From the NCBI GenBank assembly GCA_963834885.1, contig CAWIDF010000008.1:217371-281370 (forward strand): a DNA stretch of 64,000 nucleotides. The letters run 5' to 3'. Made by a program: the position numbers and the translations under genes. How positions within the stretch are numbered: the stretch's first letter is position 1; each line of letters opens with the position of its first letter. A model generated the notes under the pieces. It was not told the DNA's origin, searched no databases, and saw nothing but the letters and a program-made list of their open reading frames with translations. Shown here in pieces: positions 1 to 19,632 of the stretch. The stretch comes from an uncultured Solirubrobacterales bacterium. Its GTDB lineage: Bacteria; Actinomycetota; Thermoleophilia; Solirubrobacterales; Solirubrobacteraceae.

Positions 1-497
1 TCGCCGCGGCGTCGGGGCGGGCGATGCTGGCCTATTGGTCGGAGGAGGAGGTCGCGGCGCTGCACGAGGGCTGCGAGCTCGTGACCCCGACCGGGCGGCG
101 GCTCGAGGGGCTGGAGGAGCTGTTGGGCATTCTGCGCGAGGCGCGCCGGCGCGGTTACGCGGAGAACATCGACGAGACCTCGCTCGGGCTGCACTGCCTG
201 GCGGTGCCCGTCGGCCCGCCGGGGCGGGTGGTGGCGGCGATCACGCTGTGCGTTCCGTCGGGGCGGATGAGTGCCGCGCGCCGGCGCGAGATGCTCCCCG
301 ACCTGCTGCGCGCGGCGCGGGAGATCGTGCCCCATCCGGGGAGTGGGGGCGACGGCCACCGCCCGCTCGATGGCGATCCGGCCCCGGCAGACGATACTTC
401 ACCAAATCAATCAAGTAAGTTAGCAACTTTAGGTGCGTCGATCACGCGCAAACGCGGACGGCGCCGGCCCGATCCCAACAGAAAGGTGGCTCAATGA
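1..497 (+). CDS. IclR-family transcriptional regulator, C-terminal effector domain (5' truncated by window edge)
   Basis: Frame open from window start: ASGRAMLAY...REARRRGYAENIDETSLGLHCLAVPV...VVAAITL matches the IclR C-terminal pattern; about 55 aa low-complexity tail follows. Confidence 0.85.
   Translation, partial: AAASGRAMLAYWSEEEVAALHEGCELVTPTGRRLEGLEELLGILREARRRGYAENIDETSLGLHCLAVPVGPPGRVVAAITLCVPSGRMSAARRREMLPDLLRAAREIVPHPGSGGDGHRPLDGDPAPADDTSPNQSSKLATLGASITRKRGRRRPDPNRKVAQ
395..432 (+). promoter_or_regulatory. AT-rich putative promoter/operator of the ABC operon; inverted repeat AAGTT-AGC-AACTT (417-429)
   Basis: AT-rich patch in high-GC DNA about 60 nt upstream of the SBP start; TAAGTT (416-421) fits TANNNT. 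Confidence 0.4.
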
Positions 498-2191
498 GTC
501 GCAGCAACAGCGAGCTGGACCGGCTCCGCAGCGGGCGCACCGAGCTCGAGAACCACTACATCGACGAGCTGGTGTCGGGGAACCTGAGCCGGCGCGACTT
601 CTTGCGGCGCGGAAGCACGATCGGCATGTCGATTCCGCTCCTGGGCGCGATTCTGGCCGCGTGCGGTGGCGGCTCGTCGAGCTCGGCGTCGTCCTCGGGC
701 GGTGCGAGCACGGCCTCTGCTCCCCCGACCAAGGGCGGAACACTGCGCGTCGCGTCCGTCACCCCTGCCGCCGCGGTGAACCCGCTGACGATCGCCGACG
801 CCGGCGGCCTCACGATGATCAACCAGACCGGCGAGTTCCTGATCTTCGACTCGAACCTGAAGCTCGCGCTCCAGCCGATGCTCGCGTTGAGCTGGACGCC
901 GAACACGGACGGCAGCGTGTGGACGTTCAAGCTGCGCCAGGGGGTGACGTTCCACAACGGCGCGGCGATGACCGCCGACGACGTCGTCTGGACGTTCCAA
1001 CAACTCTCAGACCCAAAAAACGCCTCATCCGCGCTGTCGACATTCGCCGGGGTGCTCACGCCGGCGGGGGTCAAGAAGGTCGATGCGTCGACGGTCGAGT
1101 TCCACCTCGAGGCGCCGAACGCGAACTTCCCGTACTTCGTCTCCTCGGACAACTACGGCGCGATCATCGTTCCGAAGGGAACCGACTACGGCAAGTGGCA
1201 GACCACGTTCGTCGGAACTGGTGCGTTCAAGCTCGGGAGCTACACCCAGAACGTGGGTGCGACCTTCGTGCCCAATCCCAATTACTGGGGGACGAAACCG
1301 CTGCTCGCCTCGACCAGCTTCAAGTTCTACTCGAGCCAAGCGCCGATGTTTCTTGCGCTCCAGGGAAACGATGTCGACGTGATCGCGCAGTTCGCCCCGG
1401 CCGGGGCGGCTGCCATCCTCAACAACCCCACGTACAAGATCATCAAGCTGAAGTCGGCAAACCACCGCGAGCTGTCGATGCGCAACGATCAGGCTCCGTT
1501 CACGGACGCGCGCGTGCGCCAGGCGGTGGCGTACACGCTCGATCGCCCGGGGGCGGTGGCGGCGCTCCTCAGCGGCGACGGTTCGGTGGCAAACGACTAT
1601 CCGTTCGGCCCGCGGTACCCCTCGACCGATACGTCGGTTCCCCAGCGCACCCAGGACATCGCCAAGGCCAAGCAGCTCCTGGCCGCAGCCGGTCACCCGA
1701 ACGGCTTCAGCACCACGCTTCTCACCGAGCAGTATCAGGAGATTCCCGAGCTCGCACAGGTGATCGTGGCCGACGCCGCCAAAGCAGGCATCAAGATCAC
1801 CCCCAAGATCGAGAGCCAGTCCGTCTACTACGGAAAGTTCACGTTCGGCAACTCGGACTGGCTGGATGGCACGATGAGCCTGGTCGACTACGGCGACCGC
1901 GGCGCGCCGAACGTGTACCTGTCGTCGCCGCTGACCTCGAGTGGCGTGTGGAATGCGGCAAGGTTCAAGAACCCTCAGTACGACGGGCTCGTCAAGCAGT
2001 ACGTGGCTGCGCTTGACCTCGCGACCCAGAAGACAATCGCCGGGAAGATCGAGAACCTGCTCCTGGCGGAGACGCCGATTGTCTATCCCTACTGGATCGA
2101 CGGGCTGACCGCGTCGACACAGCAGGTGAACGGCCTCAACCCGACGTCGATCGCTCAGCTGTACCTGAACGCGGCGTACAAGTCTGCCTGA
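494..2191 (+). CDS. ABC transporter substrate-binding protein, family 5 (peptide/opine/nickel), Tat-exported lipoprotein
   Basis: SRRDFLRRG twin-arginine motif, LAAC lipobox, WTFKLRQGVTFHNG family 5 signature, GTGAFKL. Confidence 0.93.
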   Translation: MSRSNSELDRLRSGRTELENHYIDELVSGNLSRRDFLRRGSTIGMSIPLLGAILAACGGGSSSSASSSGGASTASAPPTKGGTLRVASVTPAAAVNPLTIADAGGLTMINQTGEFLIFDSNLKLALQPMLALSWTPNTDGSVWTFKLRQGVTFHNGAAMTADDVVWTFQQLSDPKNASSALSTFAGVLTPAGVKKVDASTVEFHLEAPNANFPYFVSSDNYGAIIVPKGTDYGKWQTTFVGTGAFKLGSYTQNVGATFVPNPNYWGTKPLLASTSFKFYSSQAPMFLALQGNDVDVIAQFAPAGAAAILNNPTYKIIKLKSANHRELSMRNDQAPFTDARVRQAVAYTLDRPGAVAALLSGDGSVANDYPFGPRYPSTDTSVPQRTQDIAKAKQLLAAAGHPNGFSTTLLTEQYQEIPELAQVIVADAAKAGIKITPKIESQSVYYGKFTFGNSDWLDGTMSLVDYGDRGAPNVYLSSPLTSSGVWNAARFKNPQYDGLVKQYVAALDLATQKTIAGKIENLLLAETPIVYPYWIDGLTASTQQVNGLNPTSIAQLYLNAAYKSA

Positions 2192-2210
2192 GCCCGGATT
2201 CCGCACGAGC

Positions 2211-3152
2211 ATGGCCAGGTTCATCCTCAAGCGACTCGGTCTCGCGCTGATCACGCTGTGGATCCTGAGCGTGATCGTGTTCGTGCTGGGTCAGGTACTA
2301 CCCAGCGATCCCGGAAGAGCGGTGCTTGGGCCGCTCGCGGATCCTCGCGCCGTGAAGGCCCTCGACCACCAACTGGGTGTCGACAAGCCATTGCTGACCC
2401 AATACTGGAACTGGATCACGAACTTCCCCGGAACCTCGACGCAGTACCAGGGGCCGATCGGGCCGATCCTTGGCCCCGCGCTCGGCCGCTCGATAAAGCT
2501 CGCGATCTTTGCGTTCATCATCGTCGTGCCACTCGGGATCTTCGGGGGGGTGGTGTCGGCCCTGAACTACGGAAAGCCGATCGATCGGACGATCAGCATC
2601 GTGGGGCAGTCGGTGTTGACCATCCCGGAGTTCGTATCGGGGATCATTCTCATCGTTGTATTTGCGGTCGAGCTGAAATGGTTACCCGTATCGGCCACGG
2701 CACCGCCGGGCTCCGGGTTCTTCACCCAGCTCAAATACCTGATCCTGCCCGTGATCCCCTTGGTGTTGGTCCTGTTCGGTTACATCGCGAGGATGGCCAG
2801 GGTGGGGACCGTGGAGGCACTCGAGTCCGACTATGCCCGCACCGCGATCCTCAAGGGCCTGCCGCGGGGCGTTGTGGTCCGGCGCCACATCCTGCGTAAC
2901 TCACTGCTGCCGACGATCACCGTGGTCGCGACTCAGACCGGTTACCTGATCGGCGGGCTGGTCGTGATCGAGACGCTGTTCCGCTACAACGGCATCGGCC
3001 TGCTCACGTACAACGCGGCCAACCAGCACGACATCCCGATGCTCGAGGCGTGCGTGCTGACGATCGGCGTCGTGTACATGGTGGTTACGCTGATTGCGGA
3101 CATTTCGTTCTCGCTGCTCAATCCCCGCATCCGGCTGAAGGCGGCCGAGTGA
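2211..3152 (+). CDS. ABC transporter permease (DppB/OppB-like)
   Basis: FILKRLGLALITL N-terminus; DYARTAILKGL...HILRNSL EAA loop. Confidence 0.93.
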   Translation: MARFILKRLGLALITLWILSVIVFVLGQVLPSDPGRAVLGPLADPRAVKALDHQLGVDKPLLTQYWNWITNFPGTSTQYQGPIGPILGPALGRSIKLAIFAFIIVVPLGIFGGVVSALNYGKPIDRTISIVGQSVLTIPEFVSGIILIVVFAVELKWLPVSATAPPGSGFFTQLKYLILPVIPLVLVLFGYIARMARVGTVEALESDYARTAILKGLPRGVVVRRHILRNSLLPTITVVATQTGYLIGGLVVIETLFRYNGIGLLTYNAANQHDIPMLEACVLTIGVVYMVVTLIADISFSLLNPRIRLKAAE

Positions 3153-4036
3153 GCATCGTCGACGTACCCGTCGAGTCAACCGGCGCGCTCCAGGCCGGTC
3201 GACGGGAGGTCCGCGCCGATCTGCTGCGCGAGCTGTTGCACTCGCCGATGTTCATGATCGGCGCGATCGTGCTGCTGTTCTGGATCGCGTGCGCGATCTT
3301 CGGGCCGACCATCGCGCCGCACGACCCGCTGGCGCAGAACCTCGAGGCGATCAACCGGTCGCCCTCCTCGTCTCACTGGTTCGGCACCGACCAGCTCGGC
3401 CGCGACGTGTTCTCGCGCGTGATCGTGGGTGTGAGGGACGTGATGATCATCGCGCCGCTCGCGACGCTGCTCGGAACGGTGCTGGGAACGATCCTCGGAA
3501 TGCTGATGGGCTATTACCGCGGCCTGGTTGACGACACACTCGGGCGGTTCGTCGAGGCGTTCCTCGCGTTGCCGCTGGTCGTGACGGGGTTGATCGCGCT
3601 GTCGACCCTGGGTCGCTCGAACCTGGTGCTGATCCTCGTGATCGGGGTTCTGTTCACGCCGCTGATCGCGCGCACGGTGCGCGCCGCGGTGCTCCTCGAA
3701 CGCGAGCTCGACTACGTGTCCGCGGCGCGCCTGCGCGGCGAGCGCGGCCCGTACATCATGTTCGTCGAGATCCTGCCCAACGTGTTCGCGCCGATCATGG
3801 TCGAGTTCACGGTGCGCCTGGCCTATGCCATCTTCGCCATCCTCACCCTGACATTCCTGGGGGTCGGCGTCCAGCCGCCGTCGGCCGACTGGGCGCTGGA
3901 CATCTCCGCTAACTTCGGTGTGGTGCCGGCGGGGTATTGGTGGGAGGTCACGTTCGACGCGATCGCGATCATCACGCTGATCGTTGCGGTGACGCTGATC
4001 TCCGACTCGATCCAGGCGACCCTGGAGGACCAGTGA
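3149..4036 (+). CDS. ABC transporter permease (DppC/OppC-like)
   Basis: HWFGTDQLGRDVFSR; DYVSAARLRGE...EILPN; GTG start overlaps upstream TGA. Confidence 0.93.
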   Translation: MSIVDVPVESTGALQAGRREVRADLLRELLHSPMFMIGAIVLLFWIACAIFGPTIAPHDPLAQNLEAINRSPSSSHWFGTDQLGRDVFSRVIVGVRDVMIIAPLATLLGTVLGTILGMLMGYYRGLVDDTLGRFVEAFLALPLVVTGLIALSTLGRSNLVLILVIGVLFTPLIARTVRAAVLLERELDYVSAARLRGERGPYIMFVEILPNVFAPIMVEFTVRLAYAIFAILTLTFLGVGVQPPSADWALDISANFGVVPAGYWWEVTFDAIAIITLIVAVTLISDSIQATLEDQ

Positions 4037-6117
4037 GTACCGCCGCGGACACACCGGCGCAAGGCGCGGTGGACACCCCGCCGCAGGACGCGCTGAGGCT
4101 CGAGGACGTTGACATCACCTATCGCGTGCGAGGACGCGATCTGGTCACGGTGCACGACGTCTCGTTCCGGGTCGGCCGGGGCGAGTCATACGGTCTGGTC
4201 GGGGAGTCGGGCTCGGGCAAGTCGACGATCGCGCTGGCCATCGTCCGCTATCTGGCGCGCAACGGCCGGGTCAGCCGGGGCGGGATCGCGATCGACGGCC
4301 GCGACGTGTTAGCGATGAACCAGGGCGAGCTGCGCCGGCTGCGTCAGAACACCGTCTCAATGGTCTACCAGGAGCCCGGGCGTGCGCTGAACCCGACGCT
4401 CCGCGTCGGGCTGCAGGTGGCCGAGGTGTTCGAGATCGCGGGCGAGGGCAAGGCGCAGGCGCTCGACCGCGCGGAGCAGATGCTGGAGAAGGTGCGTATC
4501 TCGGACCCGGCCGGCGTCATGAACCGTTACCCGCACCAGCTGTCGGGAGGCATGCTCCAGCGAGTCGTGATCGCGATGGCGCTGGCCTCCGACCCCACAC
4601 TGCTGATCCTCGACGAGGCGACGACGGCGCTCGACGCCACCGTCGAGGCCGAGGTGCTCGACCTGGTCACCGCGCTGCGCGCAGAGTTCCACACCTCGCT
4701 GTTGGTGATCAGCCACAACCTGGCCGTGATCTCCAAGATGTGCGACCGCGTCGGCGTGCTGTACGGCGGCGAATTGATGGAAGAGGGCCCGGCTCAGGAC
4801 CTCCTCCACGACCCGCGCAACCCGTACACGGTTGGCCTGCTGCGCTGCATTCCACGCCGGGACACGGTCAAGACGACTCACACGCTCGACACCATCCCGG
4901 GTTTCCCGCCGTCGCCGGGCGAGGTCGAGCACGGCTGCGTGTTTGCCGACCGGTGCGGCCTGGTCCAGCAGCGCTGCCGCGACGAAGACCCTCCCCTCTA
5001 TGACGCCGGGTCGGGCCGACAGTCCCGGTGTCACTTCTGGGAGATCGCGCAGACTCTCCCGCGCGTGGTCAGTCCGGTGCCCGAGCCCGCGGCGGTGCGT
5101 CCCGGCGAGGGCGAGATTCTGGTCAGTGCCGAGGACGTCTCGAAGACGTTCCACATGGAGGGCGAGACGATCCACGGCCTGGTCGACGTGAGTCTCGAGG
5201 TGCGGGCGGGCGAGACGCTCGGGCTGGTCGGCGAATCGGGGAGTGGCAAGACCACGCTGGCGCGCGTCCTGCTCGGACTGACCGAACCCGACAAGGGAGC
5301 GACCCTGGAGATCCAGGGCACACGGCTGCCGGAGCACGCGGGCCGGCGCACGCGCGATCAGCGGAAGTCGCTGCAGATCGTGTTCCAGAATCCGGACTCG
5401 GCCCTGAATCGCCGTCACTCCATCCGGCGACTGCTGTCGCGCTCGCTGTCCAAGCTGGGCGGCTACAGCGGCGATGCGCTGCTGAGCCGGCTGAAGGCGC
5501 TGCTGTCCGAGGTTCGGCTGGCCGATCGCTACCTGCCGATGCGGCCCGGGCAGCTGTCGGGCGGGCTCAAGCAGCGCGTCGCGATCGCCCGGGCGTTCGC
5601 CGGCGATCCCAAGATCGTGGTGTGCGACGAGCCGACCTCGGCGCTCGATGTGTCGGTCCAGGCGGCGATCCTGAACCTCCTGAACGACCTCCAACGCAGA
5701 GAGCAGGTGAGTTACCTGTTCATCAGCCACGACCTCGGCGTGGTGCGCTATCTCTCGGACCGGATCGCGGTTCTGTACCTCGGGCGGATCATGGAGCTCG
5801 GGTCCGCCGAGCAGGTGTTCAACGCGCCGCACCATCCGTACACCGAGGCGCTGCTGTCGGCCGTGCCCACGCTTGAGAACGGCGGCGCCAAGCGCGACCG
5901 GATCAAGCTCGAGGGTGAGATCCCGAGCGCGGCGAACCCGCCCACCGGGTGCGTGTTTCACACTCGCTGTCCGCGGTTCCTGGGCGACATCTGCGTGAAC
6001 ACGGAGCCGCCACTCGCGGAGGAAGAGCCCGGCCATTCCATCCGCTGTCACATCCCCCTCGAGGAGCTCCGGCGCCTCCAGGGCGAGGAGGTCTCGGTTG
6101 CCGGCGCCGGCGACTGA
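4033..6117 (+). CDS. ABC transporter ATP-binding protein, fused DppD/DppF (two NBDs)
   Basis: Two Walker A ([16 protein letters not shown]), signatures LSGGM/LSGGL, two HPY/NPY-Cys C-terminal domains; GTG start overlaps upstream stop. Confidence 0.95.
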
Positions 6118-7294
6118 CGTGGTCTCGGCCGCGCCGGGGACTGCGGCGACCCCGGCGGCGGCGATCGAGATGCGCGCCGCAGTCCTGCGCGAGCCCGGCC
6201 GGCCCGTGGCCGTGGAGACCGTGCTGCTGGCGCCGCCGCGCCGGGGCGAGGTGCTCGTGCGGGTGGTAGCCGCCGGGGTGTGCCACTCCGACGTGCGCCT
6301 GGCCGACGGCGCGCTCGGCGGCGGGCGCTGGCCGATGGTGCTCGGGCACGAGGGCGCCGGCGTGGTCGAAGCGGTCGGCGAGGACGTGATCGACCTCGTT
6401 CCGGGTGACCACGTCGCGTTCTGCTTCGTGCCCTCGTGCGGCGCCTGCGCCGCGTGCCGGTCCGGGCGCCCGACGCTGTGCGAAACGGCCGGTCGTCACG
6501 GCGTCGCCGGGATGCTGATGGACGGCACCTCGCGGCTGCGCACGCCGGACGGCGCGGTGCTCCAGCACGGCCTGATGGCGGCGTGCTTTGCCGAGCACGC
6601 GGTCGTTCCGCTGGCGGGGGCGGTGCGGTTGCCGGCGGAGATCCCGCTGTGGCAGGCCGCGCTGCTCGGCTGCGGGGTGGTGACCGGGATCGGGGCGGTC
6701 AACCTGGCGCAGCTCCGCGTGGGCGCGCACGTGTGCGTGATTGGGTGCGGCGGCGTCGGGCAGCAGGTGATCGCCGGCGCGCGGCTGGCCGGCGCGGGGA
6801 TGATCGTGGCCGTCGACGCCGACGAGACGAAGCTCGAGCTCGCGCGGCGGCGCGGCGCGACGCACGCGGTGCGCGCAGGCGCGGGCGCCCATGTCGTCGA
6901 GGAGGTACGTGCCATCTCTGGTGGCGGAGTCGAGCGCGCATTCGAGGTGGTCGGCGCCGCGACCACGATCCGCCAGGCCTGGGATGTGCTCCGCCCAGGC
7001 GGCACGGCGATCGTCGTCGGCCTGGCGCCGGCCGGGGTCGAGGTGTCGCTGCCCGCGATCGAGTTCCTGAGCGAGAAGACGATCACCGGCTGCTACTACG
7101 GCTCGGCCGACGTCCACGCCGCGCTCGGCCAGCTCGCCCAGCTCGTGGTCGACGGCCGGCTCTCGGTCGCCGATGTGGTCACGGACCTGATCGGGCTCGA
7201 TGACGTCGAGGAGGCGCTGGGCCGCCTGCGCCGCGGCGAGGGCGGGCGCTCGGTGATCGTGATCGACGAGGAGCTCGCCGGGGTGGCGCGGTGA
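6098..7294 (+). CDS. Zn-dependent alcohol dehydrogenase (MDR family, class III-like)
   Basis: GVCHSD, GHEGAG, structural Zn CGACAACRSGRPTLC, GCGGVG; TTG start with GAGGAGGT SD (alternative ATG 6170). Confidence 0.92.
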   Translation: MPAPATDVVSAAPGTAATPAAAIEMRAAVLREPGRPVAVETVLLAPPRRGEVLVRVVAAGVCHSDVRLADGALGGGRWPMVLGHEGAGVVEAVGEDVIDLVPGDHVAFCFVPSCGACAACRSGRPTLCETAGRHGVAGMLMDGTSRLRTPDGAVLQHGLMAACFAEHAVVPLAGAVRLPAEIPLWQAALLGCGVVTGIGAVNLAQLRVGAHVCVIGCGGVGQQVIAGARLAGAGMIVAVDADETKLELARRRGATHAVRAGAGAHVVEEVRAISGGGVERAFEVVGAATTIRQAWDVLRPGGTAIVVGLAPAGVEVSLPAIEFLSEKTITGCYYGSADVHAALGQLAQLVVDGRLSVADVVTDLIGLDDVEEALGRLRRGEGGRSVIVIDEELAGVAR

Positions 7295-7836
7295 ACTGGA
7301 ACGAGCAGTTGGCGCGCCGGCTCGACGGGCAGATCGGCGAGGGGTGGGGCGGGAAGCCGGGTCCCGATGGCTGCCACGTGAACGTGGTCCTGGGTGTCCG
7401 TGGGACGCCCACCGCCGCCTCGATCATCGGCACGTTCACCACGCCGTCCCCGGGCCACACGCCGATCCTCGTGGTCGTCGGCGAGAGCCAGGACAGCTAC
7501 GAGCCGGTATGGCCGCCGACGGTCATGATCAACAAGGCCACGGCGCTCGACGACCGCCATCAGACGATCACCTGGGGCGCGGGGCAGCTGGGGATCGCGC
7601 AGGGCGTGCTCGACGCGGTGGCGGACGGGCTGATTCCGCCGAGCGGCGACCTCGTCGTGCTCGTTTGCGTATGGATCGACCCCGGCGCGTCGGACGAGAC
7701 GGCCGTGCGGGCGGCCGCTCGGGTGGCCACGCGGAATGCGCTCGGCGTGGCGGTTCGCGGCCGGGAGCTCGGGGCTGCGAAGGCGCTGGTGGAACGGCGC
7801 GATTCCGTGACCAGCCCGTTCTACGAGGGGTCGTAA
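7291..7836 (+). CDS. fae: Formaldehyde-activating enzyme (Fae / H4MPT hydro-lyase) family protein
   Basis: By-eye colinear match to M. extorquens Fae: IGEG..CHVNVVLGVRGTP (VGEA..AHIDLIIGPRGSP), PPTVMINKAT (PNTLMFNKVT), GAGQLGIAQGVLDAVADGLIP ([21 protein letters not shown]), VLVCVWI (VLVGVFI), terminal SPF (HPF). Confidence 0.85.
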   Translation: MNWNEQLARRLDGQIGEGWGGKPGPDGCHVNVVLGVRGTPTAASIIGTFTTPSPGHTPILVVVGESQDSYEPVWPPTVMINKATALDDRHQTITWGAGQLGIAQGVLDAVADGLIPPSGDLVVLVCVWIDPGASDETAVRAAARVATRNALGVAVRGRELGAAKALVERRDSVTSPFYEGS

Positions 7837-7838
7837 GC

Positions 7839-8966
7839 TTGCGGATAACGGCGATCCGGCTCCAGCGGTTGACGCTGCCGCTGGACCCTCCGTTCTACGC
7901 CGCCTGGGACCCGGTGCCGCGGCGCACGTTCGACGCCACGATCGTGCGCGTGGAGACCGACGCCGGCCTGACCGGGATCGGCAGCGGGGACACCATGGCC
8001 GGCTTTGATGACTATTTTCGGTTGTTCGTGGGCCGGGACCCCCTCGCCGTTGCCCGGCACGCACGAACGCTGGAGACGGTCTCGTTTCACGGCGGGCGCT
8101 TCTGGCCGTTCGAGGCGGCCCTGTGGGACCTGCTCGGGCAGGCGTGCGGCGTGCCCGTGGCCACCCTGCTCGGGGGCTCCGCATCTGCGATACCGGCCTA
8201 CGCCTCGTGGGGCGAGTTGCGCGACCCCGGCCGGCGCGCCGAGGACGCGCACGCGCTGGTGGAGGAGGGCTTTCGCGCGGTCAAGGTAAGGATCGCGCGC
8301 GGGCGGCTCGACGAGGGAATCGCCGTCGTGGCGGCGATCCGGGCGGCGGTCGGCGACGCCCTCGAGATCATGGTCGACCTCAACCAGTGGTGGCGGATGG
8401 CGGGCGACATCGCGCCCCGGAACGGACCGGTCGACGCGCGGCGCGTGATCGAGCGCCTGCGTTCCCACGGCGTGGTGTGGATCGAGGAGCCACTGCCGGG
8501 CGAGGACCTGCGGGGCATGCGGACGCTGCGCGATCAGACCGGCGTAAGGGTCGGCGGCGGCGAGATGGCGCGTACGTTCGAGGAGCTGCGCCTCGCGCTC
8601 GAGGAGGATGCGCTCGACGTGTTCCAGCCCGACGTCGTGCTCGCCCTCGGGATCTCGGGCGCGCGCACGCTGGCCGAACTCGCGCTGCGGCGCAACCGGT
8701 GGTTCACGCCGCACACCTGGACGAACGGGATCGGGCTGCTGGCCAACCTGCACGTGTGTGCCGGCGTGGGCGGCGGGCCGTTCCTCGAGTTTCCCTACGA
8801 CCCGCCCGGATGGACGCCGGACCGGCGCGACTTCATGCTCGACACGCCGCTGGGGTTGTCGGGTGACGGGGTCGTCCGCGTGCCGGACGCCCCGGGGCTC
8901 GGCGTGGTCCTCGATGAGGAGGCGGTCGAGTTCTACGCCGAGGCGGAGCAGGCGGTGCGGGGCTGA
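7839..8966 (+). CDS. Enolase superfamily, mandelate racemase-subgroup enzyme (acid-sugar dehydratase/racemase-like)
   Basis: TTG start 2 nt after fae stop; EAALWDLLGQ, KVR, metal ligands VDLNQ / WIEEP / GGEM, QPD and PHTW (His-Asp dyad). Confidence 0.88.
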   Translation: MRITAIRLQRLTLPLDPPFYAAWDPVPRRTFDATIVRVETDAGLTGIGSGDTMAGFDDYFRLFVGRDPLAVARHARTLETVSFHGGRFWPFEAALWDLLGQACGVPVATLLGGSASAIPAYASWGELRDPGRRAEDAHALVEEGFRAVKVRIARGRLDEGIAVVAAIRAAVGDALEIMVDLNQWWRMAGDIAPRNGPVDARRVIERLRSHGVVWIEEPLPGEDLRGMRTLRDQTGVRVGGGEMARTFEELRLALEEDALDVFQPDVVLALGISGARTLAELALRRNRWFTPHTWTNGIGLLANLHVCAGVGGGPFLEFPYDPPGWTPDRRDFMLDTPLGLSGDGVVRVPDAPGLGVVLDEEAVEFYAEAEQAVRG

Positions 8967-10405
8967 GGACCGAGGCGTTCATCGACGGGCGGTTCGTCGC
9001 GGCCGCCGACGGGCGAACGTTCGAGGACGTGTCCCCGCGCGACGGAAGCGTCCTCGCCGCGGTGGCGCGTTGCTCGGGCGAGGACATTGACCGCGCGGTC
9101 CGCGCGGCGCGGCGATCGTTCGACGACGGCGGCTGGGCGCTGGCCGATCCCCGCGAGCGCAAGCGGGTGCTGCTGCGCCTGGCCGAGCTGATCGACGAGC
9201 ACGCTGAGGAGCTGGCGCAGCTGGAGTCCGCCGACGTCGGACACCCGATCAGCGACGCGCGTAATGTCGACGTCCCGGGCGCGCGCAATTGCTTCGCCTG
9301 GTACGCGGAGGCGATCGACAAGGTGTACGGAGAGATCGCCCCGACCGGCGCTGACGCGCTGGCGCTGATCGGGCGCGAGCCGCTCGGGGTGGTCGGCGCG
9401 GTGGTGCCGTGGAACTACCCGCTGATCATCACGGCCTGGAAGCTCGGGCCCGCGCTCGCCACCGGGAACTCGGTGGTGTTGAAACCGGCCGAGCAGTCTC
9501 CGCTGACCGCGCTCGCGCTGGCCGAGCTCGCGGCGGAGGCGGGGGTCCCGGACGGCGTGTTGAACGTGGTACCCGGGTACGGCGAGGAAGCGGGCGAGCC
9601 GCTCGGGCGCCACCCGCTGGTCGACAAGCTTGCGTTCACCGGGTCGGTGGAGATCGGGCGGCGGTTCCTCGTCTACGCCGGCGAGTCGAATGGCAAGGCG
9701 GTGTCGCTGGAGCTGGGCGGCAAGACCCCGCACGTCGTGCTGGCGGATGCCGGCGATCTGGACGCGGCCGTTCAGGCCATCGGCTGGGGGATCTTCTACA
9801 ACGCCGGTCAGACCTGTCACGCAGGATCCCGGGTGGTCGTGCAGCGCTCGCTGGTGGCGCCGGTGTCGGAGTTGCTGGTGGAGTTCGCAGGCGAGTTCAT
9901 CCCAGCCGACCCCGCCGACCCGGCCACAAAGCTGGGCGCGATGGTGAGCACTGAGCATCTCGCCGGCGTGCTCAGCCGGGTAGAGCGTGCCGTCGGGGAT
10001 GGAGCGCGACTGTTGGTCGGAGGGTCGCGGGTCGAGCCCGTCCAGGGTGGCGCGTACATGCAGCCCACGGTCATCGAGGCTCTCGATCCGGCCGATCCGA
10101 TCGTGCAGGAGGAGGTTTTCGGGCCGGTGGTGGCGATCCAGCCGGCCGACGACGTGGAGCACGCGGTCGCTCTCGCCAACGGCACCGGCTACGGGCTGGC
10201 GGCGGCGGTGTGGAGCTCGAACATCACGACCGCGCATCGGGTGGCGCGGCGGTTGCGGGCTGGGACGGTGTGGGTCAACACGTTCGACGTGTCCTCGCTG
10301 ACCACGCCGTTCGGCGGCGTCAAGGATTCGGGCCACGGGCGCGACCGGTCGCTCCACGCGCTCGACGGCTACACGCACCTCAAGACGACGTGGGTGGCGC
10401 TGTGA
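8963..10405 (+). CDS. NAD(P)-dependent aldehyde dehydrogenase (PuuC-like)
   Basis: VVPWNYP, FTGS, ELGGKTP, GQTC catalytic Cys, EEVFGPV; homology (FIDGRFV...TFEDVSP) extends upstream of ORF-track start to a CTG overlapping the previous TGA. Confidence 0.93.
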   Translation: MRTEAFIDGRFVAAADGRTFEDVSPRDGSVLAAVARCSGEDIDRAVRAARRSFDDGGWALADPRERKRVLLRLAELIDEHAEELAQLESADVGHPISDARNVDVPGARNCFAWYAEAIDKVYGEIAPTGADALALIGREPLGVVGAVVPWNYPLIITAWKLGPALATGNSVVLKPAEQSPLTALALAELAAEAGVPDGVLNVVPGYGEEAGEPLGRHPLVDKLAFTGSVEIGRRFLVYAGESNGKAVSLELGGKTPHVVLADAGDLDAAVQAIGWGIFYNAGQTCHAGSRVVVQRSLVAPVSELLVEFAGEFIPADPADPATKLGAMVSTEHLAGVLSRVERAVGDGARLLVGGSRVEPVQGGAYMQPTVIEALDPADPIVQEEVFGPVVAIQPADDVEHAVALANGTGYGLAAAVWSSNITTAHRVARRLRAGTVWVNTFDVSSLTTPFGGVKDSGHGRDRSLHALDGYTHLKTTWVAL

Positions 10406-11322
10406 CCGCGATCGAGCGGGTCGGGTTCATTGGCCTGGGCAACATGGGCGGGCCGATGTGCGGCCACCTAGCTCGGGCGGGGTTCTCCGTGACGGCGTTC
10501 GACTTGGATCCCGGTGCTTTGGAGCGGGCCGTCGATGCGGGTGCCCGCGCGGCCGGGAGTGCCGCGGAGTGCGCCCGGGACGCTCAGGTGCTGATCACGA
10601 TGCTGCCGGCGCCACCGCACGTCGAGTCGGTCTGGCTCGGCTCCGGAGACGGCGGCGCGATCGCCGCGCTCGAGCCGGGGGCCCTGGCGATCGACATGAG
10701 CACGAGCTCGACCGCGGTCGGGGCGCGCGTGGTCGACGCCGCGAGAGCGCGCGGGGTCGATGTGCTCGACGCTCCGGTCGCCGGGCAGTCGCTCGGCGCC
10801 CAGGCCGGGAGGCTCGCGATCTACGTGGGCGGTTCCGAGGAGGCGTTCGCCCGGGCGTTGCCGTTGTTCGAGGTGATGGGCGACCCGGCGCGGATCTTCC
10901 ATCTGGGCGGAAACGGCGCCGGGTACACGGTCAAGCTGCTCCTGAACCTGATGTGGTTCATCGAGTCGGTCGCGGTGGCCGAGGTGCTGACGGTTGGGGT
11001 GCGAGCAGGGGTGTCGCTGGATCGGTTGCATTCCGCCCTGGTCGGGTCGCCGGCCAACTCCGTGTTCCTCGAGCGGGACGTCCGAATGGTGCTCGACGAC
11101 GGTGACTACGACGAGGCGTTCCCGATGCGCCTGGTCACCAAGGACCTGGGCCTGGCCATCGACCTGGCCCGCGAGGTGGGCGTGCCGGTTGAGCTGAGCG
11201 CGCTCGTCGAGCAGATCCAGCGGCGCGCCCGCGCCGCGTACGGCGACGCCGCTGGGGAGATCAGCGCGGTCCGCCTGTATGAGGATGTGGCCGGCGTGTT
11301 ACTCCGGCTGCCCAAGACCTGA
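10402..11322 (+). CDS. Beta-hydroxyacid dehydrogenase (3-hydroxyisobutyrate/GarR family)
   Basis: GFIGLGNMG, DMST, DAPVAG, VKLLLN catalytic Lys, KDLGLA. Confidence 0.92.
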   Translation: MTAIERVGFIGLGNMGGPMCGHLARAGFSVTAFDLDPGALERAVDAGARAAGSAAECARDAQVLITMLPAPPHVESVWLGSGDGGAIAALEPGALAIDMSTSSTAVGARVVDAARARGVDVLDAPVAGQSLGAQAGRLAIYVGGSEEAFARALPLFEVMGDPARIFHLGGNGAGYTVKLLLNLMWFIESVAVAEVLTVGVRAGVSLDRLHSALVGSPANSVFLERDVRMVLDDGDYDEAFPMRLVTKDLGLAIDLAREVGVPVELSALVEQIQRRARAAYGDAAGEISAVRLYEDVAGVLLRLPKT

Positions 11323-11337
11323 GGCTGCCCTGAGGTC

Positions 11338-12318
11338 ATGGCGCGCGTAGCCCGGGCCGTCGCGGTTGATTTCGAGTGGGATGACGACTACGCGCTCGAG
11401 CGCGCCGCGCTCGCCCCGATCGGTGTCGAGCTGACGCCCGCGGGCGAACTGCGGGGGAGTGACGTCGCGGACGTGGTGGCGCTGCTCACGGCGGGTACCC
11501 GCGTGGACGGCGATGAGCTGGGGCGCTACCCGCGCCTGCGCGTGGTGTCCGAGTTCGGCACCGGCTATGACGGCATCGACGTCGATGCCGCCGCGCGGCT
11601 CGGGATCGCGGTGACCAACGTCGCCGGCTACTGCACCGAGGAGGTGGCCGATCACACACTGGCCCTCGCGCTCACGCTGGTGCGACGGATCGAGCCACTG
11701 TCCCGGCAGGCGCGCGCGGGGCGCTGGGCCACGGTCGACACGGGATCGATCGCTCGCAGCGCCGACTCGACGTGGGGGGTGGTCGGATTCGGGCGCATCG
11801 GCCGCGCGGTGGCGCGACGGGCGGTCGCGTTCGGATTCACCGTGTGCGCGTACGACGCTTACCTCGATCGCCGCGAGGTCTGCGATTACGGCGCCGAGCC
11901 GCTGGAGCTAGACGCTCTGCTCCGCCGGGCCGACGTGATCAGTGTCCACGCTGCACGCACCGGCCGCGACGATCGCATGCTCGACCGCCGGCGCATCTCG
12001 CTCCTGAAGCCCAGCGCGTATCTGGTCAACGTCGCGCGCGGGGCGTTCGCCGACGAGGACGCCCTGGCCGAGGCGCTCGACCAGGGTGCGCTGGCCGGGG
12101 CGGCGCTCGACGTCCTGGCCGACGAGCCGCCGGCGCCGGACAACCGGCTGCTCCATCACCCGCGGGTGCTGGTCACCCCGCACAGCGCGTGGTACTCGGA
12201 TCGGGCCGCGATCGAGCTTCGGACCCGGGGGGTCGGCGCCGTGGTCGACGTGCTGTCGGGACGCCGGCCGGCCGATCTGGTGCCCGAGCTCAGCGCTTGG
12301 GTGCCGGCGCGAAGCTGA
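11338..12318 (+). CDS. D-2-hydroxyacid dehydrogenase (CtBP/PGDH-like)
   Basis: GTGYDGID, EEVADHT, GFGRIG, NVARG, DVLADEP, PHSAWYS (R/E/H triad). Confidence 0.92.
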   Translation: MARVARAVAVDFEWDDDYALERAALAPIGVELTPAGELRGSDVADVVALLTAGTRVDGDELGRYPRLRVVSEFGTGYDGIDVDAAARLGIAVTNVAGYCTEEVADHTLALALTLVRRIEPLSRQARAGRWATVDTGSIARSADSTWGVVGFGRIGRAVARRAVAFGFTVCAYDAYLDRREVCDYGAEPLELDALLRRADVISVHAARTGRDDRMLDRRRISLLKPSAYLVNVARGAFADEDALAEALDQGALAGAALDVLADEPPAPDNRLLHHPRVLVTPHSAWYSDRAAIELRTRGVGAVVDVLSGRRPADLVPELSAWVPARS

Positions 12319-13891
12319 CCATCGCCGCGCTGGCGGCGGGCAGCTGAACCCTGTACTGCCCGTTGCTCGGCGGCACGCGGTCGGGCTGGAACGATCCGGT
12401 CAGGGTGCCGGTGGAGGTCTCGTCGCCGAAGCTCTGGCCGGCCAGCGTCACGCCATCCGTGGCGGCCGCGCTCGGCGCGGTGAGCGGCTCGACGATCGCG
12501 GTCTTGGTGGCGCCTCCCGGAGGTGCCAGATCCACGACCTTGTTGGCGCTCAGGCTGTCGTTGATCAGCACAACGTTGATCTGGCCGGTCGGCGTGAGCG
12601 TGGCGCGGACCCGGACGTCCGGATCGGCCGGGGAGTTCACGGCCAGCAGGCGTGAGCCGGGCGGGGCAGCCTCGGTGAACAGCAGGAGACCGTAGTACTC
12701 GGGCTTCACCTCGCCCAGCCAGTGGCCGCCCACCTGCTGGAAGGTGAACGGGTGGTAGTCGGCCTCCGGCAGCGTGTGGATGTTCACCCCGTCCACTCCG
12801 GACCGCGCCATCGCGAACAGCGTGTCGACCATCCACAGAGCCGAGGCGAAGGTGTCGCTGACGCCGGCCTGTCCCTTGCACGCCACCGAGTTCAGTTCGT
12901 CGACGCGGAACGTGGCGTGGTGCTGGTGCGCGAGGGCGATGTACTTGCCGGCGCCTTGCAACAGACCACGGGCGGAGGACGGGTCGAGCAGGTTCGGGAT
13001 GCTCGGGTAGTTCGGGTCCCCCGGCTGCGTGAAGCACTTGATCAGCGGATACCGGTGGTAGGTGACGATCTTGGTCTCCGGCTCGGCGACGAACAGCTTG
13101 TTGAGCCGAGTCAGCCACGCGTACGAGCCCGTGGCCGGCCCGGCGAACGGCGATCCGCTCAGGAGCTTGCTCAGCCTCGACATCTCGCTGGCGTAGGCCT
13201 TGAAGTGGTAGGCCCTCGGTCGCGGATACACCGCGGTGGTATTCGGGCTGAGGTAGTAGAACGGCGTGATCGGATAGAGCTCGGGCTCGTTGCCGATCTC
13301 GAACGCGTCGATCCGGCTGCGGCCGATGCCCGTCTGGAGCGCGCGCGCCTCGGTCGACACCTCGGCGGCGCTGTTCAGCTTGAGGTTCAGGTCGAGGATC
13401 ATGTGCGCGTCGGTGTCGACCGCCAGCGCACGCGTGGTGGCGAGCCAGCTGTGGTTGAGCGTGTACGTGATGCCCGGCGTGCACCTGATCGCCGGGGTCG
13501 GCCACCAGGTCTCATCGGCGCTGTTGCCGCCAATCCGCAGCACCGGAGACTGGTCGGGCGCCAAGTTGCGGATCAGCTGCACCAACACCGGATTGATCGC
13601 CCGCGGATTGGATCCGGTGTACTCCCGAACAGCCTGATACTCGAACGAGAACCCGACGAAGCCCGGGGCGATCGGACGGCCGACTGGGGTATGGCTGACG
13701 CGCACCGTCACCGGCGGGGAGGTCGTGGGGGGCGGAGTCGTCGGCGCGGGGGTCGGTGGCCCAGGGGCGGGCGGTGGGGGGGTCGTTGTCGAAGGGCAGC
13801 TCGGCGCCGCGCGAACCGAGCGCGCGGTGCCCGATAGGATCGTCGCGGCGGCAAGCGACGCCACGAGCAAGGCTGTCAACGTCCGGCGCAC
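12290..13891 (-). CDS. Secreted glycoside hydrolase family 79 (beta-glucuronidase/heparanase-like)
   Basis: Signal peptide, Pro/Thr linker, LRIGGNSAD, FEIGNEPE (acid/base), RVDELNS (nucleophile), VSDTFASALWMVD. Confidence 0.85.
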   Translation of the reverse strand: MRRTLTALLVASLAAATILSGTARSVRAAPSCPSTTTPPPPAPGPPTPAPTTPPPTTSPPVTVRVSHTPVGRPIAPGFVGFSFEYQAVREYTGSNPRAINPVLVQLIRNLAPDQSPVLRIGGNSADETWWPTPAIRCTPGITYTLNHSWLATTRALAVDTDAHMILDLNLKLNSAAEVSTEARALQTGIGRSRIDAFEIGNEPELYPITPFYYLSPNTTAVYPRPRAYHFKAYASEMSRLSKLLSGSPFAGPATGSYAWLTRLNKLFVAEPETKIVTYHRYPLIKCFTQPGDPNYPSIPNLLDPSSARGLLQGAGKYIALAHQHHATFRVDELNSVACKGQAGVSDTFASALWMVDTLFAMARSGVDGVNIHTLPEADYHPFTFQQVGGHWLGEVKPEYYGLLLFTEAAPPGSRLLAVNSPADPDVRVRATLTPTGQINVVLINDSLSANKVVDLAPPGGATKTAIVEPLTAPSAAATDGVTLAGQSFGDETSTGTLTGSFQPDRVPPSNGQYRVQLPAASAAMVSFAPAPKR

Positions 13892-13906
13892 CCAGGGCGG
13901 ACTATT

Positions 13907-15112
13907 TCAGAGAACGCCGACCCCGTGCGATGCGGCCTCGTCCCACACCGCGTGGAGGGTGGGGGGCTTGCGGAAGACGAGACCTTGGATCTTCGACGGA
14001 CGTTCCGGATCGAGTCTCAGGTTCGGCAGCCGGCGCAGCAGGGTCGCGAGCGCCGTGCGCGCCTCGAGCCGGGCGAGGTGGACGCCCACGCACACGTGCG
14101 GCCCCTGGGCGAAGGCGAGATGGCGGGGGCGGCGCGGCCGGTCCGGGTCGAACCGGTCAGGATCCGGGAAGATCGCGGGGTCGCGGTTGGCGGCGGTGAT
14201 CGAGACGCGAACGAGGTCGCCCTGGTCGATGTCGGCGCCGGCGATGTGCGCGTCGGCCGTGGCGTAGCGGTCGACGACCGCGGCGGCCGGCTCCAGCCGG
14301 AGCGACTCCTCGATCGCGGCGTCGAGCTGGGCCGGGTCGTGTTTGGCTCCGGCGAGGATTTGCGGGTGCTCGAGCAAGAGCAGGAGCGCGTTGGCGATCA
14401 TCCCCTCGGTCGTCTCGATGCCCCCGAACAGCAGCACGCCGGCGTTCGAGACGATCTGGTCGGCGCTGAGGTCCGCGTGCGCCGCGGCGGCGGCGAGCAG
14501 CGAGGCGTCGGGATCGGACTCGATGGCGGCGAGTAGGCGCTCGCGCAGGGAGGCGAAGGCGTCGCGGCCGCTCTGCGGCGTTTCGTGGCCGGCGGTGATC
14601 TCCGTCACCGCGGTCACGATCCCGTCGTACCAGGTCAGCATCGCGTCGACCTCGTTGTGGTCGATCCCGAGGGCTCGAGCCATGATGGCCGCGGCGAGCG
14701 GGCCGGCGAACGAGCGGCGCAGCTCGGCGGTGCCGGCGGGCGCGAAGGCGTCGATCAGGCGGTCGGCCTCGGTCGTTGCCGGCTGGGCGAAGCGTTCGCG
14801 GACCGCCGTCGGCCGGAACGGGCCGACGAACGGCGCGCGGTGGCGCGCGTGGGCGTCGCCGTCGAGGCTCAGCATGCTCGGGCCGACGATCTGGGCGGTG
14901 CTGAAACGCGGGTCGTCCACGGTGAAGGTTGTGGCGTCGCGCATCACGGCGAGCGCCAGATCGCGGCGGGTGACGAGCCACCCGTCCAACGCCGGCAGCC
15001 ACGAGACGGGCTCGCTCTCGCGCAGCCGGGCGTGGACCGGGTGAGGGTCCTGGTCGAGCTGCTCGAGGGTGACGCTCGCACCGAGCGGGAAGGCGTCGCT
15101 TGGGTGCGTCAC
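13907..15112 (-). CDS. Cytochrome P450
   Basis: GGIETT I-helix, EESLR, FAQGPHVCVG heme Cys; GTG start at 15112 overlaps hutI TGA. Confidence 0.93.
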   Translation of the reverse strand: MTHPSDAFPLGASVTLEQLDQDPHPVHARLRESEPVSWLPALDGWLVTRRDLALAVMRDATTFTVDDPRFSTAQIVGPSMLSLDGDAHARHRAPFVGPFRPTAVRERFAQPATTEADRLIDAFAPAGTAELRRSFAGPLAAAIMARALGIDHNEVDAMLTWYDGIVTAVTEITAGHETPQSGRDAFASLRERLLAAIESDPDASLLAAAAAHADLSADQIVSNAGVLLFGGIETTEGMIANALLLLLEHPQILAGAKHDPAQLDAAIEESLRLEPAAAVVDRYATADAHIAGADIDQGDLVRVSITAANRDPAIFPDPDRFDPDRPRRPRHLAFAQGPHVCVGVHLARLEARTALATLLRRLPNLRLDPERPSKIQGLVFRKPPTLHAVWDEAASHGVGVL

Positions 15113-16347: not shown

Positions 16348-16393
16348 GCGCGGGCAGATGTGGGGGCCGCCGGCGCGCGTCCGGAGGGGATCG

Positions 16394-18031: not shown

Positions 18032-18693
18032 GCCGCGGCCACTCCGACGTACCCGAGGTCGTGCGACAGCTCGCCGGCGTGGCGCGCCACCGCCCGCCCG
18101 CAGACCTCGACCTTTCGGGCCGTCGTGCGGTACACCGGGGCCAGCACGCTGAGCGCCGCTGCGATCTCGCCGACGGCGCCGTACACGGGGGCGGCGATCG
18201 AGATCACGTCGGGTTCGACCGCCCCGGCCCGGGCCGCGTAGCCGCCGGAACCGACCGCCCCGCGCAGCGCCCCGCCGAGTGCCGTCCCGCGCTGGGGGAT
18301 CGTCCGTCCCGCCCAGCCCACCGTCTGGACCAGCCCTGGGCCGGCGACCTGGCGGAGGTAAACGACCCGCCGGTCGTCCGCCGCCACCGCCAGATTGGCG
18401 GTCTCGCCGGTCTCGGCGGCCAGGGCGCTCAGGTGCCGGCCGGCCAGGTCGTACAGCGGATCCTGGCGCAGGGTCGCCGCGGCGAGCGCTCGGAGGCGGC
18501 CCCCGGCGTGGTAGTGCCCGTGCTCGTCGCGGCGCACGAGCTCCTGGGTGGCCAGCGTGGCCAGCAGCCGCGAGGCAGTGCTCGGCGAGAGATCCGCGGC
18601 GCGCGCCAACCGGCTGAGGTTGCCGCCCTCCTCGGCCACCGCGGTCAGCAGCCTCAGCGCTCGCTCCACGGTGCGGGTCCCGGCTTCCGCCAT
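18028..18693 (-). CDS. IclR-family regulator of the hut cluster (HutR-like)
   Basis: [12 protein letters not shown]-terminal HTH, TGETANL, IAAPV; leaderless-type TAGAGT 8 nt before ATG 18693. Confidence 0.88.
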
Positions 18694-18730
18694 CGGGTCG
18701 CACTCTACCGTAGAATGAAATGCCTTGTCA

Positions 18731-19624: not shown

Positions 19625-19632
19625 CGGGTCCG

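Follow-up and report, generated by a model that had tools for sequence, protein, structure and literature searches.

A conserved import and catabolic operon of Solirubrobacterales encoding a diverged Fae-family protein predicted to be independent of tetrahydromethanopterin

Introduction

The fae gene serves as a marker of methanopterin-linked formaldehyde oxidation and of methylotrophy in genomes and metagenomes. A member of the same family is encoded in a 64-kb stretch of DNA from an uncultured Solirubrobacterales bacterium, located on contig C8 of its genome (CAWIDF010000008.1, positions 217,371 to 281,370); the whole stretch is called the window here. The gene at 7291–7836 of the window encodes a Fae-like protein, named FaeL in this report, and lies within a tightly packed operon downstream of an IclR-family regulator gene. 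This locus raises the question of what a Fae homologue does in such an operon and whether tetrahydromethanopterin (H4MPT) takes part in its reaction. A sequence-only reading of the window had proposed a co-oriented, ten-gene import-plus-catabolism operon in which a repurposed Fae fold handles a one-carbon (C1) unit, with no methanopterin pathway in view.

Comparison of the protein, its operon and the genomes that carry it places FaeL in a separate branch of the Fae family, predicted to be independent of H4MPT, in which the fold and the catalytic His are retained. FaeL is accordingly classified here as a protein that is predicted not to be a methanopterin-dependent formaldehyde-activating enzyme. 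Non-canonical Fae groups are already known. Fae2, Fae3 and the Fae-like proteins of "groups 2–4" are non-canonical PF08714 proteins with unassigned functions; mutants show no C1 growth defect, and Fae3 fails to complement a delta-fae strain (PMC5023235; PMC11748545). The operon of the window was not found described in the literature, and no paper was found on Fae together with the enolase superfamily.

FaeL is a diverged member of the Fae family

FaeL scores 95 bits with the family profile PF08714 (cut-off 27). With TIGR03126, the equivalog model of Fae, it reaches 77.6 bits and falls short of the required 118.05. The alignment with the Methylorubrum extorquens AM1 enzyme (EC 4.2.1.147; 1Y5Y) spans the entire protein at an E-value of 4e-18 and 32% identity; FaeL has 181 amino acids (aa) and M. 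extorquens Fae has 170. The AF2 model of FaeL has a pLDDT of 91. When this model was compared with the PDB by Foldseek, only the M. extorquens Fae structures 1Y60 and 1Y5Y were retrieved (E-values of 1e-14 to 7e-17, TM scores of 0.76–0.87), and the next PDB matches were found at E > 0.03.

The A-H-I-D motif of Fae, whose His22 has been proposed as the catalytic residue, reads CHVN in FaeL. The His is conserved, but every non-canonical clade has Asn at the position of the Asp. The positions that are invariant across the family include a GE pair, the His of this motif, NK and G.AQ. FaeL resembles the M. extorquens enzyme in its fold, His, NK and G.AQ. In contrast, the blocks that are found only in canonical Fae (HxD, FGPAQ, VFIHWEA and NYEA) have given way to HxN, TWGAAQ and VW(V/I)(D/N)PxA in FaeL. 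A 4-residue insertion is present in the window's own FaeL subclade.

In a tree of 37 family members, the 16 rows of the FaeL clade are split from all others with 100/100 support, and canonical Fae sits on a long branch. Across 19 FaeL sequences with identities down to 40%, 35 columns are invariant, which indicates that FaeL is under strong constraint. The clade reaches cultured Bacillota (Domibacillus) and is numerous, with 3002 matches at E ≤ 0.001 in the protein collections searched. The divergence that the sequence-only reading had attributed to this Fae homologue is thus borne out by the failed equivalog cut-off, the HxN in place of HxD and the separate clade.

Methanopterin genes in the host genome and in other carriers

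No H4MPT gene is present in the 64-kb window, as had been noted from its sequence; the only mch and Mpt_N matches of the genome lie on contig C3 and not on C8. For the genome as a whole, the premise that a methanopterin pathway is missing fails. A complete pathway elsewhere in the genome, which the sequence-only reading had itself named as evidence that would count against it, was found on contig C3 by a profile search of the whole genome.

This H4MPT-linked C1 island (C3:674634-691500) is complete and of the classical kind, with genes for cofactor synthesis. It includes a canonical fae gene that scores 228 bits on PF08714, compared with 95 for FaeL of the window, together with mch (400 bits), fhcD (FTR and FTR_C domains) and a gene for an fhcA-like amidohydrolase. 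ATP-grasp_3, CitG-like, hydantoinase_A-like and His_biosynth-like genes, a DUF6513/pterin-binding gene resembling dihydropteroate synthase, an Mpt_N (MtdB-type) gene and a short-chain dehydrogenase/reductase gene are also located there. A beta-RFAP-synthase-like gene of the island falls just under its cut-off (107.7 against 113.5).

Other carriers of the operon give a different picture. Mch was found in 31 of the 50 operon-carrying genomes that were searched whole and was absent from the remaining 19. A further search for fhcD and for all Fae-family genes covered 26 genomes, namely the 19 Mch-negative genomes, G002 and G134 (same genus), and five genomes from other families of the phylum. Neither FTR (fhcD) nor canonical fae was detected in any of these 26 FaeL-type genomes; each has a single Fae-family match, which is of the FaeL type, and the three markers are jointly missing. 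G134, which is 95% complete, carries the full operon including the aldehyde dehydrogenase gene at 64–80% protein identity and has no mch, fhcD or canonical fae. G002, which is 100% complete, has only FaeL and the beta-hydroxyacid dehydrogenase of the operon. Several marker-negative genomes have contigs of 1.9–2.2 Mb, so assembly gaps are unlikely as a general explanation.

The distribution of Mch reflects phylogeny, with positive results in genomes close to that of the window and negative ones in more distant carriers. Since the FaeL operon occurs in genomes that are free of H4MPT genes, the H4MPT island and the FaeL operon appear to be independent accessories. The idea of a repurposed Fae fold therefore holds on comparative grounds, with orthologous operons in genomes that lack mch, fhcD and canonical fae. 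In the source annotations, members of the FaeL clade are called "formaldehyde-activating enzyme" or "tetrahydromethanopterin hydro-lyase"; these names are misleading because the clade occurs in genomes without the methanopterin pathway. As a separate observation, mch of one relative (G007/G234, contig C4:421331-422264) is spread over two neighbouring reading frames (residues 1–113 and 113–311), owing to a frameshift or a sequencing error.

Organization of the operon

The genes of the operon and the regulator gene in front of it are as follows.

1–497, + strand: IclR-family regulator, 3' part of the gene (IclR_C, 61 bits)
494–2191, + strand: family-5 (peptide/opine/nickel type) solute-binding lipoprotein, with a Tat-like signal and a lipobox (PF00496, 273 bits)
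2211–3152, + strand: ATP-binding cassette (ABC) permease of the OppB/DppB type (BPD_transp_1 and BPD_transp_1_N)
3149–4036, + strand: ABC permease of the OppC/DppC type, GTG start, 4-nt overlap (OppC_N and BPD_transp_1)
4033–6117, + strand: fused double ATPase of the OppD-OppF type (two ABC_tran and two oligo_HPY domains)
6098 (TTG) or 6170 (ATG)–7294, + strand: Zn-dependent medium-chain alcohol dehydrogenase, Zn-ADH (ADH_N and ADH_zinc_N)
7291–7836, + strand: FaeL, diverged Fae-family member (PF08714, 95 bits)
7839–8966, + strand: enolase-superfamily enzyme resembling mandelate racemase and acid-sugar dehydratases (MR_MLE_C, 178 bits)
9029–10405, + strand: aldehyde dehydrogenase (ALDH) resembling PuuC and betaine aldehyde dehydrogenase, an optional operon member (Aldedh, 523 bits)
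10402–11322, + strand: beta-hydroxyacid dehydrogenase resembling 3-hydroxyisobutyrate dehydrogenase (HIBADH) and tartronate-semialdehyde reductase (NAD_binding_2 and NAD_binding_11)
11338–12318, + strand: D-2-hydroxyacid dehydrogenase, not conserved with the operon (2-Hacid_dh_C, 185 bits)

The ten genes that follow the regulator are all on the + strand and tightly packed in DNA of about 70% G+C. Five junctions (IclR/solute-binding protein, permease/permease, permease/ATPase, Zn-ADH/FaeL and ALDH/HIBADH-like) have start/stop overlaps of 4 nt, and the widest intergenic gap in the operon is 62 nt. Every gene that had been named before is present, and the strand and the junctions also agree with the proposed co-oriented operon downstream of IclR. 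Its reading as an import and catabolic operon for an unassigned pathway is likewise upheld. The start given at position 417 needs correction, as this position lies inside the IclR gene and the first operon gene, that of the solute-binding protein, starts at 494. The IclR gene encodes 317 aa; its first 456 nt lie ahead of the window, and its end at 497 overlaps the start of the solute-binding protein gene. HTH_IclR and IclR_C domains are found in the complete gene, as in the 97.5%-identical relative L104, and about 40 related loci have an IclR match in front of the operon.

The importer is of the Opp/Dpp type (PepT), with a family-5 solute-binding protein, two BPD_transp_1 permeases and oligo_HPY ATPases. 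It reaches no substrate-specific equivalog cut-off. The solute-binding protein scores under all NCBIfam equivalog cut-offs, and its closest PDB entries are unassigned solute-binding proteins, HbpA, AgaA and DppA.

Conservation and alternative architectures

A scan of species-representative genomes yielded 71 related loci in Solirubrobacterales-type genomes. In these loci, FaeL is accompanied by the enolase-family gene in 65 of 70 cases, by the ADH gene in 60 of 70, by the HIBADH-like gene in 61 of 66 and by the ABC ATPase gene in 57 of 66, and the ALDH gene is present in 24 of 68. The conserved core has the order ABC importer, ADH, FaeL, enolase, (ALDH), HIBADH-like, and this arrangement is not due to chance. 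The linkage of Fae with the enolase and ADH genes, which had been predicted from the window, is therefore strongly conserved across the 71 loci. The description as a ten-gene unit stands in part: all ten genes are present in the window, but ALDH is optional and no adjacent orthologue of the D-2-hydroxyacid dehydrogenase was found in any of the 71 loci.

Three architectures share one chromosomal place in Solirubrobacterales. The first is that of the window. In the second, a LysR gene and a membrane-protein gene stand between the importer and the ADH-FaeL-enolase-HIBADH genes. The third is minimal and consists of FaeL and HIBADH only; these loci occupy the syntenic site with the HIBADH-like gene as the sole partner of FaeL. 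Some minimal loci lie beside genes for OpuB-type betaine permeases, a methyltransferase resembling betaine-homocysteine methyltransferase (BHMT; PF02574) and a class-I glutamine amidotransferase (GATase)/peptidase C26.

Divergent from the IclR gene, an amidohydrolase is encoded that is nearest to the Xaa-Pro dipeptidases of its superfamily (245 bits; cut-off 500). At least 25 window-type loci share it, with identities of 74–88%, and it probably belongs to the system. A conserved amidohydrolase together with a Dpp-type importer suggests an amide- or peptide-linked substrate.

More distant genomes preserve parts of the core. Other families of the phylum have ABC, ADH', FaeL, enolase and ADH genes in this order. 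In a distant lineage, the gene after that of a 49%-identical FaeL encodes an orthologue of the HIBADH-like enzyme with 56% identity to the window protein, and the two have the unusual DAPVAG motif in common. In another FaeL-enolase pair, the next gene encodes an aromatic-amino-acid lyase, and a family-5 ABC importer lies opposite. In the cultured Bacillota Domibacillus mangrovi and D. aminovorans, FaeL-IclR is divergent from genes for a betaine/choline/carnitine-type (BCCT) transporter, a Zn-ADH of the TIGR03989-like type found in the window and a succinate-semialdehyde dehydrogenase (SSADH) that scores 676 bits, over its cut-off. The FaeL orthologue of D. aminovorans is WP_063964334.1.

Sister clades of Fae-like proteins show further contexts. 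Their neighbours include a symporter with ALDH and a GabT-like aminotransferase, or a glutamine synthetase (GS)-like gene with ALDH and GcvT-like genes; in other cases the gene is immediately 3' of one for a HalD-like Fe/2-oxoglutarate (2OG) oxygenase. One member is followed by an enolase (64% identical to that of the window), ALDH (62%) and an Fe-ADH. The common denominator of these contexts is an aldehyde-making or aldehyde-consuming enzyme, often in amine-related surroundings.

Some individual loci deserve separate mention. In another soil metagenome-assembled genome (MAG), EgtB-like (DinB_2 and FGE-sulfatase) and MetE-like (Meth_synt_2) genes adjoin a FaeL-enolase-lyase operon (L113:12475-14819), and these neighbours hint at chemistry of the histidine-betaine/ergothioneine type. 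At L097:9626-10956 and L100:9680-11093, the Fae-like gene, which is of another clade, overlaps the preceding gene for a HalD-like (BesD-type Fe/2OG) oxygenase. One of these pairs follows a 2-oxoacid dehydrogenase E1/E2 set, and the other is beside ALDH, GS-like and GcvT-like genes.

Partner enzymes

The Zn-ADH is nearest to the group of dehydrogenases that are dependent on N,N-dimethyl-4-nitrosoaniline or belong to class III (TIGR03989, 280 bits against a cut-off of 440). It reaches no equivalog cut-off, those of the thiol-dependent families included (TIGR02818, 265 against 544; TIGR03451, 250 against 513). Both of its zinc sites are kept, and the residues that correspond to the glutathione contacts Asp55, Glu57 and Arg114 of human ADH5 are replaced. 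The mycothiol ligase MshC was not found in the genome, where the best match scored 272 against a cut-off of 485. The loss of the glutathione contacts in a genome without MshC makes a thiol-adduct pathway unlikely.

The enolase-family enzyme has C- and N-terminal MR_MLE domains (178 and 26 bits). Its best NCBIfam matches are galactonate and talarate/galactarate dehydratases, far under their cut-offs, and its nearest PDB entries are 3SJN, 5OLC and 4GGB. As the enzyme is only about 30% identical to these acid-sugar dehydratases and lactone cycloisomerases, their function is not transferable to it. In an alignment with 3SJN inspected by eye, the candidate metal ligands are the D of MVDLN, the E of WIEEP and the E of GGGEM, and the candidate dyad consists of the D of QPD and the H of TPHTW; the KxK motif reads KxR.

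ALDH remains under the equivalog cut-offs of PuuC (536 against 850) and of betaine aldehyde dehydrogenase (450 against 669), and it also matches alpha-ketoglutarate-semialdehyde dehydrogenases. The HIBADH-like enzyme is likewise under the cut-offs of tartronate-semialdehyde reductase (209 against 341) and HIBADH (197 against 292). It keeps the catalytic Lys motif GNGAGYTVKLLLNL (GxGxxxKxxxN), and the substrate motif DAPVSGG is changed to DAPVAGQ. An assignment as an imine reductase was considered for this protein and rejected because the catalytic Lys of the beta-hydroxyacid dehydrogenases is kept.

Proposed function and alternative explanations

It is proposed, with a probability of roughly 0.45, that the locus is an operon under IclR control in which an imported compound of amide- or peptide-like nature is catabolized, and that FaeL acts in it as an H4MPT-independent aldehyde-adduct enzyme. 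The Dpp/Opp-type ABC system would import the compound, and the divergently encoded dipeptidase-like amidohydrolase would probably cleave its amide. A hydroxyl group would be oxidized to an aldehyde by the NAD(P)-dependent Zn-ADH, the HIBADH-like enzyme or both, and ALDH, where present, would convert the aldehyde to an acid. The enolase-family enzyme may perform alpha-proton chemistry (dehydration, elimination or epimerization) on the resulting carboxylate. FaeL would most likely catalyze a reaction of the type known for Fae, namely carbinolamine/iminium chemistry in which a nitrogen nucleophile adds reversibly to an aldehyde and water is lost. It could act on the aldehyde that the dehydrogenase encoded next to it makes, or on formaldehyde together with an acceptor other than methanopterin. 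The sequence in which the steps occur, an aldehyde as the FaeL substrate and the nature of the imported compound are inferred. The formaldehyde or hydroxymethyl C1 unit proposed earlier is no more likely than an aldehyde specific to the pathway. If FaeL carries out aldehyde-amine chemistry without methanopterin, it would represent a new reaction type on a fold known from a single enzyme.

Several points weigh against this proposal. The host genome makes the enzymes of the H4MPT pathway, so that H4MPT may be used here. The comparison genomes are mostly MAGs, and some of the recorded absences could be gaps. The importer differs from the enzymes in G+C content and diverges faster, and in some genomes a LysR gene and a membrane-protein gene lie between the two modules; the importer and the enzymes may not share a substrate. 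Furthermore, the set of enolase-family enzyme, ALDH, HIBADH-like enzyme and 2-hydroxyacid dehydrogenase also fits an ordinary acid-sugar pathway.

The strongest rival explanation is that FaeL is a formaldehyde-activating enzyme dependent on tetrahydrofolate, or on another non-methanopterin pterin, which would pass formaldehyde from N-methyl, O-methyl or hydroxymethyl groups to the folate C1 pool. This explanation, which we regard as unlikely, gains from the retained Fae fold and catalytic His, from the presence of the FaeL clade without H4MPT genes, from the minimal loci beside betaine-type ABC permeases and BHMT-like methyltransferases, and from the GcvT-like and GS-like genes beside a sister clade. 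A folate-linked role of Fae homologues has also been suggested (PMC11748545). However, the operon encodes no formaldehyde-releasing demethylase, oxidase or aldolase, and no folD, purU or gcvT was found at the window-type locus or was apparent among the open reading frames of the window, which were inspected by their N-terminal sequences only. Moreover, the condensation of formaldehyde with tetrahydrofolate is already fast without an enzyme. Use of H4MPT itself, with FaeL as a Fae paralogue that traps formaldehyde released by the operon for oxidation by the C3 island, is a good deal less probable. The complete island in the same genome, the occurrence of Mch in 31 of 50 operon carriers and the catalytic His kept in FaeL would agree with such a role, but orthologues with 65–77% identity stand in the same operon in genomes without mch, fhcD and canonical fae, and the co-occurrence with Mch is explained by phylogeny. 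FaeL also falls under the Fae equivalog cut-off, its canonical sequence blocks are replaced, and its clade extends to Bacillota, in which an H4MPT pathway is not known.

An ordinary pathway of the acid-sugar or aldarate type (dehydratase, semialdehyde dehydrogenase, tartronate-semialdehyde reductase and hydroxyacid dehydrogenase), with FaeL as an accessory or non-catalytic passenger, is quite unlikely, although less so than the H4MPT-dependent paralogue. The nearest relatives of the enolase-family enzyme (galactonate and talarate/galactarate dehydratases and lactone cycloisomerases), of the HIBADH-like enzyme (tartronate-semialdehyde reductase) and of ALDH (through its alpha-ketoglutarate-semialdehyde dehydrogenase matches) would suit this pathway, as would a secreted protein resembling glycoside hydrolase family 79 (GH79) that is encoded convergently downstream. 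The operon nevertheless has no aldolase, KdgD-type dehydratase or kinase, its importer is of the peptide/opine type, and its conserved divergent partner is a dipeptidase-like amidohydrolase. FaeL is in addition the most constant member, persisting with HIBADH alone, and its 35 invariant columns in 19 sequences argue for a catalytic protein. There is only a slight chance that the Zn-ADH and FaeL act as a pair to detoxify formaldehyde in a thiol-dependent manner, in which case FaeL would be an analogue of Gfa and the Zn-ADH would oxidize the S-hydroxymethyl adduct. The two genes overlap by 4 nt, and the dehydrogenases of S-(hydroxymethyl)glutathione and S-(hydroxymethyl)mycothiol are among the best family matches of the Zn-ADH; these scores are far under the cut-offs, and FaeL occurs without the Zn-ADH in minimal loci. 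Both the mycothiol-linked and the glutathione-linked versions were rejected on the loss of Asp55, Glu57 and Arg114 and the absence of MshC from the genome.

The proposal of an H4MPT-independent aldehyde-adduct enzyme can be taken one step further. It is possible, though on balance doubtful, that the HxN FaeL clade represents a new activity, that is, a cofactor-independent or folate-using carbinolamine/imine hydro-lyase that works alongside NAD(P)-dependent alcohol and aldehyde dehydrogenases. Such an enzyme might interconvert an amino-aldehyde with a cyclic imine or aminal, or it might split a carbinolamine so that the aldehyde becomes oxidizable. If this is true, the operon of the window and the simpler BCCT-ADH-SSADH-FaeL cluster of Domibacillus would represent an undescribed route for the breakdown of amino-alcohols or onium compounds in abundant soil Actinomycetota, and "fae" matches in soil metagenomes would not signal methylotrophy.

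Comparison with known systems

Unlike canonical Fae genes, FaeL genes are unlinked to mch, mtd and fhc and are set in a dehydrogenase-rich catabolic operon. The published Fae2, Fae3 and groups 2–4 proteins come from proteobacterial methylotrophs that have H4MPT, and they have no informative operon context, whereas FaeL belongs to a fixed catabolic operon in non-methylotroph genomes. The function of non-canonical Fae proteins has been open since their description (PMC11748545). One group now has fixed partners and a cultured carrier, Domibacillus, which makes the function of FaeL directly testable.

Gfa and class III ADH resemble the window in that an adduct-forming enzyme is encoded beside a medium-chain Zn-ADH. 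However, the fold of Gfa is unrelated to that of FaeL, and in the window the ADH has lost the glutathione-contact residues and the genome has no mycothiol ligase. The Puu, GbsAB (choline to betaine) and GabT/GabD clusters are also similar, as they combine a transporter, an alcohol dehydrogenase and an ALDH of the PuuC, betaine aldehyde dehydrogenase or SSADH type. The likeness extends to peptidase C26/GATase, GS-like and GabT-like genes, which several lineages have in the vicinity of Fae-like genes. In contrast to the window operon, the Puu, GbsAB and GABA-shunt (gamma-aminobutyrate) pathways contain no Fae-family or enolase-superfamily enzyme.

Module differences and flanking genes

The importer cassette (window 494-6100) has a G+C content of 63–69%, compared with 72–76% for the catabolic genes (6100-12300). 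The density of differences from L104 is also about five times higher in the importer cassette than in the catabolic genes. These differences suggest recombination or separate histories of the two modules. In L104, a 764-aa "ALDH-HIBADH fusion" was called. It was rejected as an artefact, since one extra C is present within the ALDH gene (L104:12840, corresponding to window 10130) and ALDH of the window has a normal C-terminus. A homopolymer error in the long-read assembly probably accounts for the extra C.

Just upstream of the window (C8:213988-216818; L077:8989-11819), the amidohydrolase gene and a gene for a 536-aa lyase resembling histidine ammonia-lyase (HAL) are divergent from IclR. About half of the loci have a HAL-like gene between those for the amidohydrolase and IclR. 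The upstream HAL-like lyase is only 30% identical to the product of a second HAL-like gene at window 19633-21111. Histidine-utilization genes are present on both sides of the operon in many genomes. A link between the operon and the Hut genes was considered on the basis of this synteny and of the lyase gene in one distant FaeL-enolase operon, and no claim is made because the upstream HAL-like gene is optional.

Downstream of the operon, the region at window 12290-21111 encodes a secreted protein with a GH79-C domain, a cytochrome P450, HutI (above its cut-off), urocanase and the second HAL-like protein. The GH79-C-domain gene is convergent with the operon and is syntenic even at the minimal loci.

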